From: Candidatus Micrarchaeota archaeon
Lineage (GTDB): Archaea > Micrarchaeota > Micrarchaeia > Norongarragalinales > SBBD01
Assembly (NCBI GenBank): GCA_038046605.1
Contig: JBBSVW010000079.1
Location: forward strand, 1-29,718
Reading direction: 5' to 3'
DNA: 29,718 nucleotides
Positions 6,137 through 13,512 of the stretch are shown piece by piece (the first letter of the stretch is position 1; each line of letters begins with the position of its first letter). The notes under the pieces were generated by a model that saw only the letters and a program-made list of their open reading frames with translations, was not told the origin of the DNA and did not search any database. Made by a program: the position numbers and the translations under genes.

Positions 6137-6180
6137 TTCTTCTCCATATACCCGCACTTCCCGCATCCCCACCTATCCGG
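6137..6180. repeat. 44-bp direct repeat, copy 1 (duplicate of the rps27ae 3' end)
   Basis: TTCTTCTCCATATACCCGCACTTCCCGCATCCCCACCTATCCGG is identical to 7652..7695. On the minus strand it reads ...[15 protein letters not shown] and continues G-stop. Confidence 0.97.
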
Positions 6181-6211
6181 CTGATTTGCATTTACTTTTG
6201 CTTCTGCCAGT

Positions 6212-6838
6212 TCATTTTTTCAATTCCCGCAAGAAACCACGTTTCCATTTTGCGAATTCATTCAAATTCAAGTTGAGATACTCCGCATCCTTCGGATTAA
6301 AAAAAAGCACCTCCTTTTCCAGCTCATCGCTCAATTTTTCAAGCTTGTATTTTTCCAATATTCCCTTATATTTCTCAAGCGAAAATCCCGAATGCACAAG
6401 CAATGTGAGGATATCTATCAAATCCTTTTTCCCTTTTGCAGAACCTCTCCTTTCCACTTCGGCGCCTTGTTTCAATATAATCAGCACTTCCGGCAAAGGC
6501 ACCCGGAAGCCTTGCACTACCGTCGAGTATTCCTTCAGGTGTTCAAGGGGAAAAGCGAGGCGCGAGTAACCCGGAAGGTAAATATCTGCATCGAATCCGC
6601 CCATCTTTATTTCGTATTTATGCAGCCGTTCATTCTTCTCCAAATTGAAATTTGCACGCAATAAGTTCAAGGCATTGTAGTCTATGACCATATCGATATC
6701 CTTGGATTTGTGAAGGCCCGCCCATACATATGCCGCCCAACCGCCGATGAGCGTAAATTCATATTCCTTCGATAGCGATATCAGCGCTTCCCAGCTCTTT
6801 TCCGTTACGCTTTCATTCCAGAATTCATGCATTTTCAT
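6212..6838 (-). CDS. Nucleotidyltransferase, AbiEii/type IV TA toxin-like
   Basis: 'LIGGWAAY', 'SKDIDMV', 'LKQGA...R...KGKKDLID'. Its ATG overlaps the upstream stop (ATGA at 6838..6835). Confidence 0.75.
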   Translation of the reverse strand: MKMHEFWNESVTEKSWEALISLSKEYEFTLIGGWAAYVWAGLHKSKDIDMVIDYNALNLLRANFNLEKNERLHKYEIKMGGFDADIYLPGYSRLAFPLEHLKEYSTVVQGFRVPLPEVLIILKQGAEVERRGSAKGKKDLIDILTLLVHSGFSLEKYKGILEKYKLEKLSDELEKEVLFFNPKDAEYLNLNLNEFAKWKRGFLRELKK

Positions 6839-7419
6839 TTCAACAGCCTCGCTTTCAATGCAAGAAGATAATCCCTTGCGTACCATTCCTTGAGATTCCA
6901 GAGATCGACATAAATTTGCGGCAGCGGTGCCGTTGCAGAATCCTTCATAAATTCATCCTTATTTAACACAAATAAATTCTGCCTGCCTTTCTGAAAAGGA
7001 AACCGCCACTTTATTTCCTCAAGGGTTTTAGCATCTGCGTATACATATGCCTCGCCGTAATCTGCAGGCGCGTCATCAAATCGCAGGCGGAACGCCGAAT
7101 ACGCGGTAAAGATTGTCCCGGGCGGCATTTCGCCCTCAATTTTAATTGGAGGCATTTCCGAACGCGTAGAATAAACGAGGTCCTTTTCAATGTTCCTGAT
7201 GGTCGCCCAGTATGTCAAAATCTTCTCAGCATCGGTTACAATAAAGGAGCGGGTTCTTTTCTCAATTCCCCCCATTTTCTCCAGGGGCTTTAGTGCATTG
7301 TTAACAGTGCTCAATGAAAAGCCGAATTTCCGTGAGAGCGAAAGCTGCGTAAAAGAATATTGCCTATGCTCCAATGCCTCGCTTAAAATATGCCTGTAGA
7401 CCAGCTCTTTTTTCAACAT
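6835..7419 (-). CDS. Winged-HTH plus AbiEi-like antitoxin
   Basis: N-terminal HTH 'TQLSLSRKFGFSLSTVNNALKPLEKMGGI'; 'FTAYSA' and 'PLPQIYVDLW' are typical of AbiEi C-terminal domains; coupled to the NTase gene. Confidence 0.75.
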   Translation of the reverse strand: MLKKELVYRHILSEALEHRQYSFTQLSLSRKFGFSLSTVNNALKPLEKMGGIEKRTRSFIVTDAEKILTYWATIRNIEKDLVYSTRSEMPPIKIEGEMPPGTIFTAYSAFRLRFDDAPADYGEAYVYADAKTLEEIKWRFPFQKGRQNLFVLNKDEFMKDSATAPLPQIYVDLWNLKEWYARDYLLALKARLLK

Positions 7420-7485: not shown

Positions 7486-7647
7486 TTTGAAAACTACGTT
7501 GGTTTGCGGCAAGTTCCGGAAGGCAGGTGCCGCCCTTCAGGCGATGCGGTAAAACACCGCTTTCAAATCACGATTCTCCGAAGATAAAGCGCCTTGGCCG
7601 AGCGCAATTCGTTTAATGCTGAAAAGGGCACTTTTCCGGGGCATCGG

Positions 7648-7785
7648 TTATTTCTTCTCCATATACCCGCACTTCCCGCATCCCCACCTATCCGGATGGC
7701 TTGCTAGATTGGAGCCGCACTTCGGGCATTTCCGCTTCTTGAAATCGTAATCCTTGAACTTCTTTGCGCCCTTTTTTACTGCCAT
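7648..7785 (-). CDS. rps27ae: 30S ribosomal protein S27ae (eS31), 45 aa
   Basis: Not in the ORF track. Translates as [45 protein letters not shown] with a CxxC..H.DR..CGKCGY zinc ribbon; conserved position after rps24e. Confidence 0.95.
7652..7695. repeat. 44-bp direct repeat, copy 2 (inside the rps27ae 3' end)
   Basis: Identical to 6137..6180, offset 1515 bp. Confidence 0.97.
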
Positions 7786-7834
7786 AAATATTTCACCGTT
7801 TTATAATTTTTTACTATATGCCCTCTTTACAAAT

Positions 7835-7941
7835 GTTTTCTTTCCAGCGGAGCCGTTCGCCGCTTTCTTTTTCACCGGGCAGACAAAGTCTGCGCGGCCC
7901 CAAAGAACTTAAGTTCTTTTGGGAAAGAAAGGGGCAAGGCA
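7835..7941. repeat. Structured palindromic element, copy A (intergenic, rps24e-rps27ae)
   Basis: Core 7874..7923 (ACCGGGCAGAC-aaa-GTCTGCGCGGCCCCAAAGAAC-ttaa-GTTCTTTTGGG) sits inside CTTTCTTT/AAAGAAAG inverted repeats and matches 12535..12638. Confidence 0.85.
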
Positions 7942-7942
7942 G

Positions 7943-8239
7943 TTATTTCTTACCTTCCTCCGCCTTCTTTTCCGTCTTTGTTCCGCGCGCCCTCTTGTAT
8001 GCCGGCTCCTTCAATGCGCCCTGCGCATTATCATAAATCCTAACATATACCTTTGCATACTTGGTCCCAAACGGATGGACCACCCTTTCAATGATTATCT
8101 CATCGGCGGCTGCCGTGAACTGCTTTTGAATTTCACTCATCAGATGCTTCCTGGATGGCGTTTCCTTCTCCACCGGAAGCTTAACTATGATCTCCTTCCT
8201 CCCAAGCAATTTGTTTTCCTTGTTTTCCAATATTTCCAT
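7943..8239 (-). CDS. rps24e: 30S ribosomal protein S24e
   Basis: 'MEILENKENKLLGRKEI...TPSR...FGT..AKVYVRIYD...EP'; GAGGGG SD-like sequence before ATG8239. Confidence 0.93.
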   Translation of the reverse strand: MEILENKENKLLGRKEIIVKLPVEKETPSRKHLMSEIQKQFTAAADEIIIERVVHPFGTKYAKVYVRIYDNAQGALKEPAYKRARGTKTEKKAEEGKK

Positions 8240-8324
8240 ATGAACCCCTCGTTTTTTAGAATTGTTTTCCGAATGCACCAGATTACCTTGGTTTAATATC
8301 GTCCATTCATTTTTTCAAAATAAC

Positions 8325-8507
8325 CTATTTCAATTTAAGCGCAAACTTCCCCGGAACCTTTGCCCCTATTGCAGCGGCTATCAACGAATCCGTAGGATCC
8401 GCAACGTAGATCGTCCCCTCATAGCTTTTTGTCAGGTCGGATCCGCCGCAAACCGCGCACTTATCGCCCGCAAGGACAATTGCCCTGCAATTCCTGCATG
8501 CTTTCAT
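8325..8507 (-). CDS. spt4: Transcription elongation factor Spt4 (RpoE'')
   Basis: 'KACRNC...CAVCG...G...DP..SLIA......PGKFALK'; follows rpoE'. Confidence 0.93.
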   Translation of the reverse strand: MKACRNCRAIVLAGDKCAVCGGSDLTKSYEGTIYVADPTDSLIAAAIGAKVPGKFALKLK

Positions 8508-8614
8508 TTTGATTTCACCAATAATTTTTTTTATTTAAATGAAGGGTTTGGCGGGTGTAAAAGCGAGCAAGCAATTTTTTCCCGTTATCCCCCAATTCCA
8601 ATTTTTACATTCCT

Positions 8615-9142
8615 TTATTTTTTCGAAATCTTCCCAAGCCCATCCGGCCTCATGGTAAGGGCAATTTTCGAATTCGGGATGGTGTCCTTGAAGGATACCG
8701 TTGCAACTTTTGCCCTCACAAGATCGCCCTTCTTGATTGTCTTCTTGCTGTTCTTCCCAATGAGCTGCGTGTTCTTCTTATCGTAGCTCAAAAACTCATT
8801 TGCAACCTGCGAAACGTGGACCAGCCCATCAATTGGCCCAAGCCTGACAAAGGCGCCAAACTCGACGATTTCGGACACTTCCCCCTCAAGCACCTCATTG
8901 ACCTCCAATGCAAAAACAAGAGCATCATATTTGACATCAAAATAAGCCGCGCCATCTCCGGGCAGTATTTTCCCATCGCCCTTGATCTTCGCATTGAAAA
9001 TCCCAAGCATGATCCCGTAATTCTTATCGACAGTCCTTTCGTACCTTTCCCTAAGCATCTTTTCAGCCGCATCATTTAGCTTTAGCCCAAAAAGGTTTGG
9101 GGGAATGCGCACGGAATCCTCGAATGTTATCAATTTGTACAT
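8615..9142 (-). CDS. rpo7: DNA-directed RNA polymerase subunit E' (Rpo7)
   Basis: 'VRIPP..FG', 'GDGAAY', 'EVLEGEV..IVEFGAFVRLGPIDGLVHVSQ', 'KIALTMR..GLGK'. Confidence 0.96.
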   Translation of the reverse strand: MYKLITFEDSVRIPPNLFGLKLNDAAEKMLRERYERTVDKNYGIMLGIFNAKIKGDGKILPGDGAAYFDVKYDALVFALEVNEVLEGEVSEIVEFGAFVRLGPIDGLVHVSQVANEFLSYDKKNTQLIGKNSKKTIKKGDLVRAKVATVSFKDTIPNSKIALTMRPDGLGKISKK

Positions 9143-9157
9143 ATGTTCTCACCATTT

Positions 9158-11143
9158 TCAAAGAAGTTGTATGGCATATTTTGCAATCATTGCGCCCGCA
9201 ATCAGGGAAACCGTATTTAGCACCTTGATTAGGGCATTAAGCGCAGGCCCGGCCGTATCCTTGAATGGATCGCCAACCGTATCGCCAACTACTGCTGCCA
9301 TATGCGCATCCGATCCCTTCCCGCCAAATTTCCCATCCTCAATGTATTTCTTGGCATTATCCCAGGCCGCGCCGGTATTTGCCATGAATAGCGCAAGCAG
9401 CAAGCCGGAAATGATTGCGCCTGCAAGCATCCCCCCTAGTGCCTCGACGCCAAATATCAATCCCACCACAAGAGGCGATAGCACTGCGATAAGCGCCGGC
9501 ACCATCAATTCGCGAAGCGCTCCTTGCGTTGCAATATCGACGCACTTTGCATAATTTGGTTTTGCCTTCCCCTGCATTATCCCCTTGATTGTTTTAAACT
9601 GGTGCCTAACCTCCTCCACCATCTTGAATGCGGCATTCCCAACCGCCTGCATCAAAAAGCTTGCGAAAACAAATGGCAAAAGCCCCCCAATGAACAGCCC
9701 CACCACTACTAGCGGATTTAGGATATTGATATTTGTGAGATTCACTTCAATTGCATAAGCTGCAAATAAAGAGAGCGCCGAAAGCGCCGCCGAGGCAATT
9801 GCGAATCCCTTGGTTGTTGCCTTGGTTGTGTTTCCAACGGCATCAAGGGCATCCGTCACCTTCCTAACCCCTTCCGGAAGGTTGCTCATTTCTGCAATCC
9901 CCCCTGCATTATCCGTGATTGGGCCGTATGAATCAATTGCTACAATTATCCCGGTTGTTGCAAGCATTGCAGATGCCGCAAGCGCAATTCCATAAACTCC
10001 CGCAACCGAATAAGAAATGATGATTCCAAGGACAATTGCAATCACTGGGAGCGCCGTGCTCTTCATGCCAATTGCCATTCCTGAAATCAGGTTTGTGGCA
10101 GCGCCCGTCCTGCTTGCCTGCGCAATCTGCGATACTGCATTGCTTTCCTTAACCGTGTAATGCTCTGTAATTTTGCTTATAGCTACTGTTAGTGCAAGGC
10201 CCACAAGTCCCGCATACCAGTAGTTGATCCCAACTCCTATGAGTGAGAATGCAAAGAACAAGAAGCCCGCAAGCATGATTACCGTTGAAAATGTGCCCTT
10301 ATCCAGTGCGTGCATGATATTCTTGCTTGCTCCAAGCCTCACAAATTGCGCTCCAATTATGGATGCAAAAATCCCAAGGCCCCCGACGACAAGCGGGAGC
10401 ATCACCAATAGCTCGCTTCCAAGGCTGATGCCAAGAAGCATTGCCGCAATAACTGTGACAACAAAGCTCTCGAATAAATCCGCGCCCATGCCTGCGCAAT
10501 CTCCGACGTTGTCCCCGACATTATCCGCGATAACTGCCGGATTCCGCGGATCGTCCTCAGGAATCCCCTTCTCAAGCTTCCCAACCAAATCCGCGCCAAC
10601 ATCGGCTGCCTTGGTGAAAATGCCCCCACCAACCCTGGCGAAAAGTGAAATAAGTGACGCCCCAACCCCAAAGCCAATAAGTGCCGAAATATCCTTCATT
10701 GGCAGGTAAAATACAATGGTAATAAGTGTTACGCCAAGAAGGCCAAGGCCAACTACTGAAAAGCCTGTTACCGAGCCTCCCTTGAATGCCAAATCAAGCG
10801 CGCCCTTAAGGCCGCTTTTTGCCTCTTCAGCTGTCCTCACATTTGCCCTAACTGAAATGCTCATGCCAATGACTCCAGCTAAATACGAAAGCGCCGCCCC
10901 GAAAACAAATCCGATTGCGGCATTTATCCCGATGAAATACCAAACAAGCGCCCCAACTACCACTGCGAACAATGCAATTGTCTGCAGTTGCCTCTTCAAG
11001 TACGCATAAGCGCCATCAGAAATGGCTTTTGCAATCTCCCTCATCTTAGGGGTGCCGGATGGCTTTTCCATTATCTGCCTAACCACATAGTAGGCATATA
11101 TGATTGCCGCAATTCCCGAAACCATTGCAAAGTATTCCAGCAT
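9158..11143 (-). CDS. hppA: Membrane-bound H+-translocating pyrophosphatase, K+-independent type
   Basis: 'GGGIFTKAADVGADLVGK', 'EDDPRNPAVIADNVGDNVGD', 'DTVGDPFKDT'. 'GNTTKATTKG' has Lys at the K+-dependence determinant. Start ATG11143 (GGTGA upstream) or GTG11155. Confidence 0.96.
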   Translation of the reverse strand: MLEYFAMVSGIAAIIYAYYVVRQIMEKPSGTPKMREIAKAISDGAYAYLKRQLQTIALFAVVVGALVWYFIGINAAIGFVFGAALSYLAGVIGMSISVRANVRTAEEAKSGLKGALDLAFKGGSVTGFSVVGLGLLGVTLITIVFYLPMKDISALIGFGVGASLISLFARVGGGIFTKAADVGADLVGKLEKGIPEDDPRNPAVIADNVGDNVGDCAGMGADLFESFVVTVIAAMLLGISLGSELLVMLPLVVGGLGIFASIIGAQFVRLGASKNIMHALDKGTFSTVIMLAGFLFFAFSLIGVGINYWYAGLVGLALTVAISKITEHYTVKESNAVSQIAQASRTGAATNLISGMAIGMKSTALPVIAIVLGIIISYSVAGVYGIALAASAMLATTGIIVAIDSYGPITDNAGGIAEMSNLPEGVRKVTDALDAVGNTTKATTKGFAIASAALSALSLFAAYAIEVNLTNINILNPLVVVGLFIGGLLPFVFASFLMQAVGNAAFKMVEEVRHQFKTIKGIMQGKAKPNYAKCVDIATQGALRELMVPALIAVLSPLVVGLIFGVEALGGMLAGAIISGLLLALFMANTGAAWDNAKKYIEDGKFGGKGSDAHMAAVVGDTVGDPFKDTAGPALNALIKVLNTVSLIAGAMIAKYAIQLL

Positions 11144-11334
11144 TTCTTGTTTCACCTAATTTTCAAGATTTGGCCATTTTGGCTAGTTTGCTTATTCTTC
11201 CATATCGCAAGATAAGCCTTCAATTCAAGGAAGAAATAGAGGGAATTATTATTGGGGAAAATGATTAAAAAGACGACTATTGGCTCTTTTGGAGAGGAAA
11301 AATTAGTTATACGCAAATATGCCTGCCCCAAAAA

Positions 11335-12039
11335 TCACTTGATCCATTCCGGAGTGATGAGGCCAAATGGCATATCTCCCAGGTGCTTTTTGTAAAATGC
11401 CCTTTTCCTCCTGAGTTCATCCAAGCTAAGCCTCCTATCCTGCCAAATGTTTACCCGCAATATCTGGTTGGGAGTGCTTTTTCCAATAGATGAATTGGAA
11501 TAGGGCGCGAGCATTTCAAGTTGATATGCATCGCCTTCCGTTTCTTTGCCTCCAGACCTAAACGGATGCCTCAACTGTATGCCTCTTCTTCTTTCAAAAT
11601 CTACATTAGGCTCATGTTTGCCTACAAAACCAGTCTTCAAAATTGATTTCAGGGTATCCAGCACGTCTTGCCCGCCAGTTCCTCTCATGATTGTATGCAA
11701 AAGCGGAAGCTGATAAATTGCAATATTTCCACTCCTTAATTTCCTGAGCTGAAGCACAATGTCTCCCATCGGTAGCCTAAATGTTGCAGTATCCTTGCCA
11801 TGCCTATAATTGGGCCAATTCTTCCCAATTTCGGCCATCAATTTCTCCCTAATTGAATTAATTTTCTTTCCTTTTCCAAATCGCAATCCTGCTGGCAAAC
11901 TAACTGGCCCGATTTTAACTGGGAAAAATAGTTCAGAAATAGTGGACGCCTTTACCTGCTTTAGCTCATCAATCGTCCCCTTGAAAAAAACAAGCGGGGC
12001 AGCGCCTTTACGGCTCGATTCCCTGCGATAAATTGGCAT
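11335..12039 (-). CDS. Hypothetical basic protein (possible ADP-ribosyltransferase-like fold in the C-terminal half)
   Basis: 234-aa ORF with no competing long ORF; weak 'LLHT...LKSILKTGF' pattern. Confidence 0.6.
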   Translation of the reverse strand: MPIYRRESSRKGAAPLVFFKGTIDELKQVKASTISELFFPVKIGPVSLPAGLRFGKGKKINSIREKLMAEIGKNWPNYRHGKDTATFRLPMGDIVLQLRKLRSGNIAIYQLPLLHTIMRGTGGQDVLDTLKSILKTGFVGKHEPNVDFERRRGIQLRHPFRSGGKETEGDAYQLEMLAPYSNSSIGKSTPNQILRVNIWQDRRLSLDELRRKRAFYKKHLGDMPFGLITPEWIK

Positions 12040-12109
12040 ACTATTAAGCGGTTTTTAGGAAATAATAAACTGAGTATATGGATTAACTGGACGATTTTGC
12101 AATCAGGCT

Positions 12110-12490
12110 TCATCCAATATCCACGTGCCCCTTGCCGCGCATCCCAATTGTCCTAACTTTTAGCTTTTTGAGCTTCGCCTTAAGCTCCTTATCCAATGTC
12201 GCAACGTAAAACTCCTCCGAATTGTTCTTTTCCGAATACTCCAAAATAATTTCGTCGGTTTTTCCCTGCACCTTCACTATTTCGAATTTGCCCCTAAGCC
12301 TATTGATGAACGAAAGCATCGTCCTAGCGTACATCCTTTCCCTGCCCCTAAGCGATCTCAATTCCGCAAGTGTGCTCGAAAGCAGTATGAATTTCACACC
12401 CCCGGCAAGCGCCCTGTCTATCTCCTCGAAAATATCCACATGGTTCGTGAATGGTATCAGGAGGAAATTCGTATCCAAAAGAACTTTCAT
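12110..12490 (-). CDS. PIN-domain protein, archaeal Fcf1/Utp23-like (VapC9-like)
   Basis: 'MKVLLDTNFLLIP...VDIFEEI', 'EL..L', 'D', 'VATLDKELK'; GGTGG before ATG12490. This family normally precedes rpoE'. Confidence 0.88.
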   Translation of the reverse strand: MKVLLDTNFLLIPFTNHVDIFEEIDRALAGGVKFILLSSTLAELRSLRGRERMYARTMLSFINRLRGKFEIVKVQGKTDEIILEYSEKNNSEEFYVATLDKELKAKLKKLKVRTIGMRGKGHVDIG

Positions 12491-12514
12491 ATCCACCACT
12501 TGATAATAAGAAAA

Positions 12515-12788
12515 CGGGCTCGGCGGGATTTCCATGCCTTGCTTTTCTTTTGCAACCGGGCAGAACACTGTTCTGCACGGCCCCGAAGAACTTTCGTTCT
12601 TCGCGGAAAAGAAAAGCGGTGGCGCCGCAAAAGAAAACGGATTTCATTTGCATATCAAAACAAACTGCTTCCCAAAGAGGGGGAGCGAGCAGTCTGCTCA
12701 AGGGGGATGCTTCCCCCGACGCAGACATTTGAACCCACGGCCTTCTGGTTAAAAGCCAGACGCTCTAGCCAAGCTGAGCTACGAGCCC
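12515..12788 (-). tRNA. tRNA-Lys(UUU) with a 199-nt intervening sequence in the T-loop (best fit 59/60; intron 12529..12727)
   Basis: 5' part: GGGCTCG TA GCTC AGCTTGGCTA GAGC G TCTGG CTTTTAA CCAGA AGGCC GTGGG TTCAAA. 3' part: T CCCGC CGAGCCC G (12528..12515). Joined, they give a complete 75-nt cloverleaf. Confidence 0.93.
12535..12638. repeat. Structured palindromic element, copy B (inside the tRNA-Lys insert)
   Basis: Core 12555..12606 (ACCGGGCAGAAC-act-GTTCTGCACGGCCCCGAAGAAC-tttc-GTTCTTCGCGG) lies between GCTTTTCTTTT and AAAAGAAAAGC inverted repeats; homologous to 7835..7941. Confidence 0.85.
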
Positions 12789-12915
12789 GTTAATTGCGAA
12801 AAAGGGGCATCGATCCCATTTAAATTTGGGAAGGCATGCCCCCCACCTCCTAAATTAGCAGGGCAACATTTAAAATAAACGCATCAATAAGCATTCACGT
12901 TGTTTGGGTGATCAA

Positions 12916-13512
12916 ATGCTCGTATTCCTTCTTGGCGTTAAGGCTGTTGGCAAAAGCAAGCTAACCGCCGAGCTTAACACATTCCTTGGGGGCAAAATCA
13001 ATGAAATCTCATATGGGGATGTGATGCTTGAAATCGGGAAGGAAAAAGGCATAATCACTGATAGGGAGCAGATTGCCAAATTGCCAAGTGCCACCCAGAA
13101 TCAAATAAGGCAGGCGGCTGCCGAAAGGATAAGGGCGCTTGCGGACAAGGAGGATTTTGTCTTCCTCAATACCCACGGCTACATCTATACCATTCCCCAT
13201 CACACCTATTTGCCCGGTTCGCCGGATTCCGTTTCAGACCTCCTTAAGCCAAACCTTCTCTTGCTGGTGGAAGCCGAGCCCGAGGCGATAATTGCCAGAA
13301 GGAAGATGGATTTGGAAAAGACCGGCAGGCAGCGCGAGATTGGGACAGTTCCGGAAGTTGCGGAAGCGCTATTCTACGAGCGCATTTCAGCCGTCCACAT
13401 CTCCATGCGCTACGCATGCGACCTTAAGCCCTTTGACAACACGAAGGCGGTTGATGAAAATACGGCGGAAATCTCAAAACTTTCTGAAATGTTCAAGGGA
13501 ATGGTGAAATAG
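12916..13512 (+). CDS. adkA: Archaeal adenylate kinase (AdkA family, somewhat divergent)
   Basis: P-loop 'GVKAVGKS', 'SYGDVMLE', 'DRE.I.KL', 'NTHG', 'YLPG.P', 'EAEPE.I..RR..D..R.R'. Confidence 0.85.
   Translation: MLVFLLGVKAVGKSKLTAELNTFLGGKINEISYGDVMLEIGKEKGIITDREQIAKLPSATQNQIRQAAAERIRALADKEDFVFLNTHGYIYTIPHHTYLPGSPDSVSDLLKPNLLLLVEAEPEAIIARRKMDLEKTGRQREIGTVPEVAEALFYERISAVHISMRYACDLKPFDNTKAVDENTAEISKLSEMFKGMVK

Follow-up and report, generated by a model that had tools for sequence, protein, structure and literature searches.

How does the same T-shaped palindrome come to lie both inside a tRNA gene and in the spacer between two ribosomal protein genes of one archaeal genome? The question is raised by contig JBBSVW010000079.1 of a Candidatus Micrarchaeota archaeon (assembly GCA_038046605.1), whose 29,718 nucleotides form the window analyzed here. 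A preliminary description of this DNA had reported two such palindromes, which we term copy A (in the rps24e-rps27ae spacer) and copy B (in tRNA-Lys(UUU)), and both are present where it placed them. Our data indicate that A and B probably both belong to a modular, lineage-specific family of palindromic repeats in Micrarchaeota that behaves as a non-autonomous mobile element and makes up the body of most tRNA introns in the genus. Below, G000 is the genome of the window (1.64 Mb in 106 contigs, 90.7% complete) and G001-G006 are its six congeners; C labels are loci of G000 and L labels are excerpted loci. The genomes compared are 68-97% complete, and a gene missing from one of them may still be present in the organism.

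We compared the two copies by local alignment against 1000 dinucleotide-preserving shuffles. Plus strand to plus strand, A and B align with a score of 64 (shuffle mean 16.9 +/- 2.5, z = 18.8, reached by 0 of 1000 shuffles), and this alignment spans the core, the pair of hairpins enclosed by each copy. The cores alone give z = 15.9 in plus/plus comparison (0/1000 shuffles) and z = 4.2 in plus/minus comparison (3/1000). The flanks, consisting of a GC hairpin and pyrimidine runs, align plus-to-minus only (z = 4.9, 1/1000). The cores therefore lie on the same strand and the flanks are inverted, which is the arrangement the preliminary description had claimed. Whichever strand is folded, the minimum-energy structure of each copy is a three-way junction in which an outer pyrimidine/purine stem surrounds the two hairpins (fold z -2.9 to -4.8), in keeping with the T shape drawn earlier, and the same fold was obtained for 20 of 23 core-bearing units from G000 and related genomes.

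The family is built on a unit of ~60 nt that contains a pyrimidine run, a 4-7-bp GC hairpin, a second pyrimidine run pairing with a purine run, and a terminal GGGGCAAGGC or GCAAGGC. Many copies have, in addition to the unit, a conserved upstream extension; weak matches between A and B that had been noticed outside the palindromes (CAAATG and others) are the degenerate end of this extension. We built two covariance models, R1 from 17 coreless units (G000 matches counted at E <= 1e-3) and R2 from the two-hairpin core (cut-off E <= 1e-4). Copy A as a whole spans 7819..7941 on the plus strand, with ends that form an imperfect inverted repeat. Its unit, at 7832..7940 (plus; R1, E 3.6e-8), runs in order through pyrimidine run, GC hairpin, pyrimidine run, core-holding loop, purine run and terminal GGGGCAAGGC. 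The 49-nt core of copy A lies at 7875..7923 (minus, the strand denoting B-like orientation; R2, 69.8 bits), and the junction defined by the fold yields identical coordinates. In copy B the unit occupies 12536..12645 (minus; R1, E 5.2e-10) and the fold-defined core 12556..12606 (minus), which R2 matches over 12556-12605 with 55.1 bits.

Searches of G000 found 27 copies of the unit: 26 by R1, A and B included, and one more, in the 5' arm of C62, by regular expression and BLAST. The regular expression, written for the conserved unit end, gave 74 matches, from which we kept by eye 26 distinct copies where the hairpins were also present; the matches discarded were chance matches in coding sequence and repeat listings of the same site. 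It missed the unit at C68, which was found by sequence and covariance models. Short-word BLAST of A and B against G000 returned about twenty further loci. With nhmmer, the core of copy B matched only itself in G000, and a covariance model was required to find others. All copies are internal to chromosomal contigs, in or between cellular genes. Viral contigs gave four exact matches to a 17-mer of the unit, of which only one also yields a weak partial model match (24 bits), with no real unit among them.

Outside G000, R1 finds 16-33 copies in each of the six congeners and a patchy distribution across the rest of the order. Within the family, the four remaining genomes have 0-6 copies, and one of these, 90% complete, has none. 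Beyond the family, G031, G023 and G024 have 24, 15 and 11 copies, respectively, and many genomes of similar completeness have none; overall, 22 of 41 genomes contain a match. At four of the eight best loci from other genera, the unit overlaps or adjoins an Rfam tRNA match. Among the 80 matches listed for an exact unit 17-mer in public genomes, 27 fall in records titled Micrarchaeota or Norongarragalinales, with several per genome, and the single matches in unrelated bacteria are about as many as expected by chance for a database of this size. The proposal that A and B belong to a family of elements is supported by these counts.

Most copies sit in tRNA genes. We assigned by eye the contexts of the units and the exons of tRNA genes other than Lys. 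By this assignment, 20 of the 27 units lie in intervening sequences of 17 tRNA genes: 18 in T-loop inserts of 15 genes, three of which hold two inverted units (C1, C27a and C62), one in a D-loop insert of tRNA-Gly(UCC), and one in an apparent canonical 37/38 intron of tRNA-Thr(GGU). Four units (C9, C57, C68 and C89) lie beyond a complete tRNA, directly upstream of a second copy of a tRNA 3' end. The last three are elsewhere: copy A, C93 at a duplicated gene start, and C57b. In our own reading the unit-bearing tRNA genes include those for Ala, Asn, Gln, Gly (two genes), Leu, Lys, Met, Phe and Thr. Rfam tRNA matches in G000 number 29 at E <= 10, with 15 above the cut-off, so the unit-bearing genes represent a large share of its tRNA genes.

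The tRNA-Lys(UUU) gene that holds copy B spans 274 nt (12515..12788, minus), including a T-loop intron. Rfam detects only its 5' part, the first 59 bases at 12730-12788, and ARAGORN finds no tRNA in the unspliced window because of the intron. Removing 12531-12729 in silico restores a canonical tRNA-Lys(ttt) cloverleaf as judged by ARAGORN, Lys being the sole gene checked in this way; the tRNA insert named in the preliminary description is real. The predicted intervening sequence (12531..12729, minus, 199 nt, with the cut sites expected somewhere within two bulges) consists of an X module, a ~48-nt repeat described below, at its 5' end (12678..12725, minus; nhmmer, E 7e-15), a spacer, and copy B at its 3' end with the unit forward in tRNA sense. 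The borders of this sequence are predicted to form a motif of the bulge-helix-bulge (BHB) type. Its 5' half (12723..12738, minus) comprises the T-stem at 12738-12734, the central helix strand H (T-loop 54-57) at 12733-12730, a bulge at 12729-12728 and the inner helix h' at 12727-12723; the 3' half (12523..12539, minus) comprises h' at 12539-12535 in the end of copy B, H' at 12534-12531, a bulge at 12530-12528 and the T-stem at 12527-12523. The motif read from the sequence would have a central helix with 4/4 bp, one bulge of 2 nt and another of 3 nt, and an inner helix of 5 bp made of the first bases of the X module (5' strand) and the end of copy B.

T-loop inserts share this layout. The T-stem is the outer helix, T-loop positions 54-57 pair with the four bases directly after the unit end, the bulges that would hold the cut sites are AA or AAU on the 5' side and AAU on the 3' side, and the insert ends (GCCTTGCC / GGCAAGGC) pair as the inner helix. 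The predicted central helix is complete (4/4) in seven of 15 T-loop inserts (Lys/B, Gln, Phe, C70, C106a, C90 and Leu) and reaches 3/4 in six more. The Gln and Phe inserts form the strict 3-4-3 motif, and the inner helix h' of C90 has only 1 bp. These predictions come from a scan confined to T-loop starts, as a generic BHB scan was swamped by low-complexity matches. When intron boundaries were sought by brute force, ARAGORN returned odd solutions for several tRNA genes and none for most, a failure due to second introns and a search range that was too narrow. G000 encodes a 388-aa EndA that matches the ARMAN-2 epsilon2 EndA (PDB 4fz2) over its full length (E 3.5e-126), and it encodes RtcB (E 2.4e-171).

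In the tRNA genes, the intervening sequence begins with the complement of a unit end, or a look-alike of it, and closes with the unit end itself, so placed that the two are predicted to pair beside the splice sites. The four bases directly past the unit end would pair with T-loop 54-57 and be followed by the AAU bulge; together with the T-stem, this would complete a BHB motif that an epsilon2-type EndA could cut, leaving RtcB to rejoin the exons. Unit-bearing introns are presumably excised from their transcripts. The T-loop is nearly universal, so a single cassette would be harmless in almost any tRNA, and the T-loop would be a hot spot for this reason. The suggestion that the palindromes can sit inside spliceable tRNA introns agrees with what we find, and copies also lie at non-tRNA sites.

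The core is a second module nested within the unit. It lies in the loop of the pyrimidine/purine hairpin in 10 of the 27 units, with ambiguous orientation in C70. We placed contigs of four public runs on window positions 7500-13000 and found, in run X3 from another study, a 687-nt contig that is identical to 7652-7874 and 7924-8324 (223 + 401 letters, 0 differences) and skips exactly 7875-7923. The 49 nt skipped are the core of copy A as defined by both the fold and R2, and they have no flanking repeat and no target duplication. R2 finds 12 cores in G000, ten of them in canonical units; cores in other, related flanks occur at C16, C89:36817 and C62:178-229, the last in a tRNA leader. In congeners, a core is present at sites where the orthologous unit of G000 is coreless (Ala, Thr and Gly-UCC).

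Core orientation relative to the unit is variable. Pairwise scoring gives 10 flip (A-like), 7 flop (B-like) and 6 ambiguous cases (n = 23), and by the strand of the R2 match the 19 cores of canonical units divide into 11 flip and 8 flop. The asymmetric mismatch of the GCAGAC hairpin switches side with orientation, so these are true inversions and not swaps of hairpins. At the duplicated gene start where C93 of G000 and L069 of G005 are orthologous units, the core is inverted between the two species, in support of the flip/flop relationship first described for A and B. We suggest that the 49-52-nt core can enter the loop of the pyrimidine/purine hairpin, or leave it, with base precision and no duplication of the target. 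Its target is a perfect palindrome, and the core could therefore take either orientation relative to the asymmetric flanks; flip and flop forms would arise when the core inserts into the palindromic loop on either strand, or by recombination across a short inverted repeat. Most of the data are accounted for no less well by insertion, in either orientation, into a palindromic target than by hairpin resolution or template switching, the routes raised in the preliminary description. In four further loci, L071 and L074 (G003), L079 (G004) and L080 (G005), a ~40-nt two-hairpin piece lies in the loop of the unit's GC hairpin, with ATCG on both sides in three of the four.

Orthologous sites within the genus differ in the presence of both unit and core. 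The spacer around copy A separates the gene for ribosomal protein S24e (7943..8278, minus; Pfam Ribosomal_S24e, E 6.6e-16), upstream in gene sense, from that for ribosomal protein S27a(e) (7648..7785, minus, 45 aa plus stop; Pfam Ribosomal_S27, E 2.1e-8), and copy A begins 1 nt past the rps24e stop codon (gene sense, minus strand). In G000 this spacer has unit and core; in G006 it has the copy-A unit at the same place and in the same orientation, coreless; in G001, G004 and G005 it has no unit, and G004 has instead a unit overlapping the rps27ae stop codon. The tRNA-Lys gene is intact and without a unit in G001, G004, G005 and G006, and in G003 it contains a 93-nt-class T-loop intron of one unit. 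In G002 the tRNA-Lys gene is intact, and behind it come two units and a second copy of the tRNA 3' end; in G000 the gene has the X-plus-B insert. At least three different events have taken place at this one gene within the genus. From these sites we infer that units spread at the DNA level, and we favor a DNA-level non-autonomous element whose ends constitute a ready-made BHB intron and which is moved by some enzyme. Copy A would then be a cored unit that came to rest in the spacer of a ribosomal-protein operon, and there it is probably just tolerated and not put to use.

Two sister repeats accompany the units. The X module, with two GC-rich hairpins in its ~48 nt, has 8 copies in G000 (in the window and at C3, C13, C23, C56, C57, C105 and C106), usually immediately behind the 3' end of a tRNA; in G001, G002 and G004 it comes after the intact tRNA-Lys gene. 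The Z module is a ~35-nt GGGGGG/CCCCCC hairpin repeat with 14 copies, also often directly after tRNA 3' ends, at C8, C9, C26, C34, C55, C61, C73, C76, C78 and C106 of G000, at L043/L055 of G001 and at L066 of G002. In G001 a Z module has the first ~33 nt of a PIN gene duplicated around it, and in G002 the last ~20 nt of rps27ae are duplicated in this way. Beyond the window, C79:39336-39520 is a composite of a core-like two-hairpin piece and a Z-like hairpin, flanked by a ~27-nt direct duplication at an apparent gene end. At C16:6140-6270, C93:9290-9460 and L069 (G005), units lie at gene starts whose first 17-45 nt are duplicated on both sides. The same ten codons are kept in both gene-start copies of C93; the idea that mostly synonymous differences reveal selection on both copies was dropped, as it proved under-powered after comparison with the G005 ortholog.

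Close to copy A, the window contains a direct repeat of the rps27ae 3' end (6137-6183 versus 7652-7698; 44 nt identical, or about 53 nt at 94%). This repeat brackets a 1.46-kb module of two small genes on the minus strand, 6212-6886 and 6835-7419, one with a weak winged-helix match and the other without a Pfam family. It looks like an integrase-less integration scar.

Several observations weigh against a mobile family. Several unit-bearing introns occupy tRNA positions that are shared among congeners, which means that much of the family is inherited vertically, and the term mobile rests on a limited set of polymorphic sites. A convincing BHB motif is absent from two of the 15 T-loop inserts, C27b (2/4) and C62. 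The assembly contains no donor with a core identical to that of copy A, the nearest sharing 33 identical bases, and the core indel at copy A could have arisen by structure-driven deletion instead of insertion. Selection on RNA would likewise fit the compensatory changes in the core and the bias in its orientation. As to a mobilizing enzyme, none was found: G000 at its 90.7% completeness encodes no Phage_integrase, Resolvase, TnpB, Cas1 or reverse transcriptase, and no unit-flanked transposase was seen among the 8 enzyme families searched for in this one genome. The co-occurring HUH/Y1 transposase envisaged in the preliminary description did not materialize: Y1_Tnp is found in two of seven genus genomes and in none of the unit-rich genomes G023, G024 and G031 (15, 11 and 24 units), and does not co-occur with units.

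The first alternative takes up selection on RNA. It holds that unit and core are cis-acting RNA modules, such as an endonuclease platform, a processing or stability element or a protein-binding site, and that their copies arose through intron duplication and vertical descent and not through any mobility of the element. Pairing is conserved, as had been noted from A and B: across 22 aligned cores, 88.4% of cells are standard pairs compared with 82.4% in shuffles (reached by 0 of 500), and 8 of 17 core pairs show changes on both sides, in an alignment that was fitted to the model and hence leans towards structure. Pairing in the unit hairpin is likewise kept by matching arm changes in C89, C90, C106a and C68. 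However, palindromic DNA preserves pairing by itself on either strand, and the conserved core pairing fits selection on structure or the behavior of palindromic DNA alike. The recurrence of units at the same tRNA positions in several congeners and the role of the unit end as part of the BHB motif are also expected for an RNA module, but units occur in both orientations relative to the tRNA (in the 5' arm, the 3' arm or both arms), and the non-tRNA copies A, C93 and C57b have no BHB motif.

The core speaks to the same alternative in both directions. Its RNA-sense orientation is the same in 11 of the 15 cases with a known transcript strand, which are not all independent, and opposite in four (C62, L069, L077 and L078); it is a bias and not a rule. 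The core is also dispensable, being absent from 17 of 27 units, from the copy-A ortholog of G006 and from the otherwise identical strain contig. The functional RNA motif that the preliminary description had offered as its own alternative keeps the orientation bias in its favor but is weakened, and we consider it unlikely. The outcomes by which that description would have been refuted did not occur: there are further copies, similarity is above that of shuffles, and the core sense is not constant (4 exceptions among 15).

A different alternative starts from the duplications around units. Here the units would be arms or ends of small integrative elements that entered tRNA and protein gene ends by site-specific recombination, with introns as a secondary outcome, much as PMC3293823 proposes intron gain via mobile-element integration. 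Direct repeats of the target gene end bracket the insert at C9, C57, C68, C89 and the tRNA-Lys gene of G002, where the unit is immediately followed by a second copy of the tRNA 3' end that spans the T-loop to 1-2 nt beyond the gene, and are found neither in true introns nor at copy A. Duplications of gene starts or ends of 17-45 nt flank units or sister modules at C16, C93/L069, L073, L081, C79:39336-39520, the PIN gene start of G001 and the rps27ae end of G002, and within the window the 44-nt rps27ae repeat surrounds its module of two genes. The lengths of flanking duplications range between about 7 and 45 nt, with no fixed-length target duplication. By analogy, these variable duplications at tRNA 3' ends and gene starts or ends recall integrase attachment sites and the Caldiarchaeum model. 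Yet G000, at 90.7% completeness, has no tyrosine or serine recombinase, viral contigs offer four exact 17-mer matches and no real unit, and the core indel lacks a flanking repeat. True introns hold a complement of the T-loop, not a duplicate, and do not fit a simple att scar. We judge this origin to be rather improbable. That the units are REP/REPIN-like or IS200/IS605-derived hairpins that a Y1 (HUH) transposase mobilizes in trans as single-stranded DNA is very improbable indeed: the elements are rich in hairpins and often form inverted doublets (C1, C27a, C62), core gain and loss occur without target duplication, and the C9 unit has a Y1_Tnp gene 1.2 kb away, but this gene, the only one in G000 (148 aa, C9:24297-24650, minus; L089 1456-1902), is a typical IS200-like copy, far GC-richer than its surroundings and equipped with terminal hairpins of its own that are unrelated to the units, G000 lacks TnpB, and the distribution of Y1_Tnp, in genomes 68-97% complete, runs counter to that of the units.

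For the DNA-level element that we favor, we also considered other candidate movers. G000 encodes one rve-type transposase, at a contig end and without visible link to units. It further encodes a free-standing LAGLIDADG-type gene of 277 aa (C9:23271-24101, minus; L089 472-1305) that lies directly upstream of a tRNA gene, and behind that tRNA gene come a Z module, a unit and a duplicate of a tRNA 3' end. Full-length orthologs with 58-63% identity are present in five of six congeners; outside the genus we found weak matches only, mostly to long open frames, and G023, G024 and G031 have none or such weak ones. We regard this gene as a lead and not as support.

A bolder form of the same idea, which we offer tentatively, is that the unit is a portable intron cassette: mobile DNA that brings its own half of the splicing motif (closing helix, T-loop complement and bulge), can thereby colonize the T-loop of nearly every tRNA gene without harm, and is itself host to a hairpin-loop-seeking module that nests in it in either orientation. 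Its mover would be an enzyme so far not recognized as a transposase, with the genus-specific LAGLIDADG endonuclease, or the splicing endonuclease and ligase working backwards, as candidates. In that case the genus displays archaeal tRNA introns being born with the intermediates still in place, in the shape of duplicated-3'-exon forms, empty and filled alleles, and coreless and cored alleles.

Parvoviruses, including adeno-associated virus (AAV), have T-shaped terminal hairpins with an A-B-B'-C-C'-A' geometry that exist in flip and flop forms. The preliminary description had drawn this analogy. The geometry and the two core orientations relative to the flanks are indeed shared; the association with a Rep nickase and with the ends of a linear single-stranded replicon is not, since the element described here is chromosomal and leaves no sign on viral contigs. 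Flipping in our system can moreover follow insertion into, or recombination across, a palindromic hairpin, and the analogy is one of shape only.

REP/REPIN and MITE-like repeats are short, multi-copy, hairpin-forming, non-coding palindromes. The Micrarchaeota units resemble them in these respects and also in their inverted doublets, patchy distribution among relatives and nested insertions. In contrast to such repeats, the units have no co-occurring cognate transposase and no fixed-length target duplication, and most copies are in tRNA genes, fitted to the RNA splicing machinery.

The non-canonical tRNA introns of ARMAN-2 are a closer parallel. They share with the inserts described here the T-loop position (59/60 class), BHB or relaxed BHB motifs at the exon-intron borders, a full-length match between the respective EndA proteins, and a high fraction of disrupted tRNA genes. 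The ARMAN-2 59/60 intron that has been assayed is 13 nt long, whereas the inserts here are roughly 90-200 nt; they also have a palindromic repeat in common as their building block, in many cases with modules nested in it, and this repeat occurs outside tRNA genes as well. A limited literature search found no account of a modular palindromic repeat that builds Micrarchaeota introns and has a flipping core and non-tRNA sites; the supplementary tRNA tables of PMC3239211 may be relevant to ARMAN-2 introns. Standard tRNA finders miss most tRNA genes in these genomes on account of the unit-built introns.

How introns arrive in tRNA genes is presented as the central open problem in a preprint on Asgard tRNA introns (10.64898/2026.10.13.758758), which found no general route and names Thermoproteales as the sole positive case. 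The Thermoproteales case is the "large-scale intron transposition" of Fujishima et al. (2010), which, as related in PMC4090602 and in the same preprint, describes intron families common to different tRNA genes. So far as these sources describe it, that system and ours are alike in having similar introns across tRNA specificities within one genome, recent lineage-specific gains, and a BHB requirement that filters where introns persist. They differ, on the same accounts, in phylum and in endonuclease type, and in the features seen here of a modular anatomy (unit, optional flipping core and sister modules), non-tRNA copies, duplicated-3'-exon forms and a strain-level indel. The Micrarchaeota repeats would represent a second and anatomically much clearer case of tRNA-intron arrival, and one from a different phylum: a repeat that lands at non-tRNA sites as well can be seen to make up the introns, and orthologous sites are empty, filled, cored or flipped within one genus, with one event so recent that it is polymorphic between otherwise identical strains.

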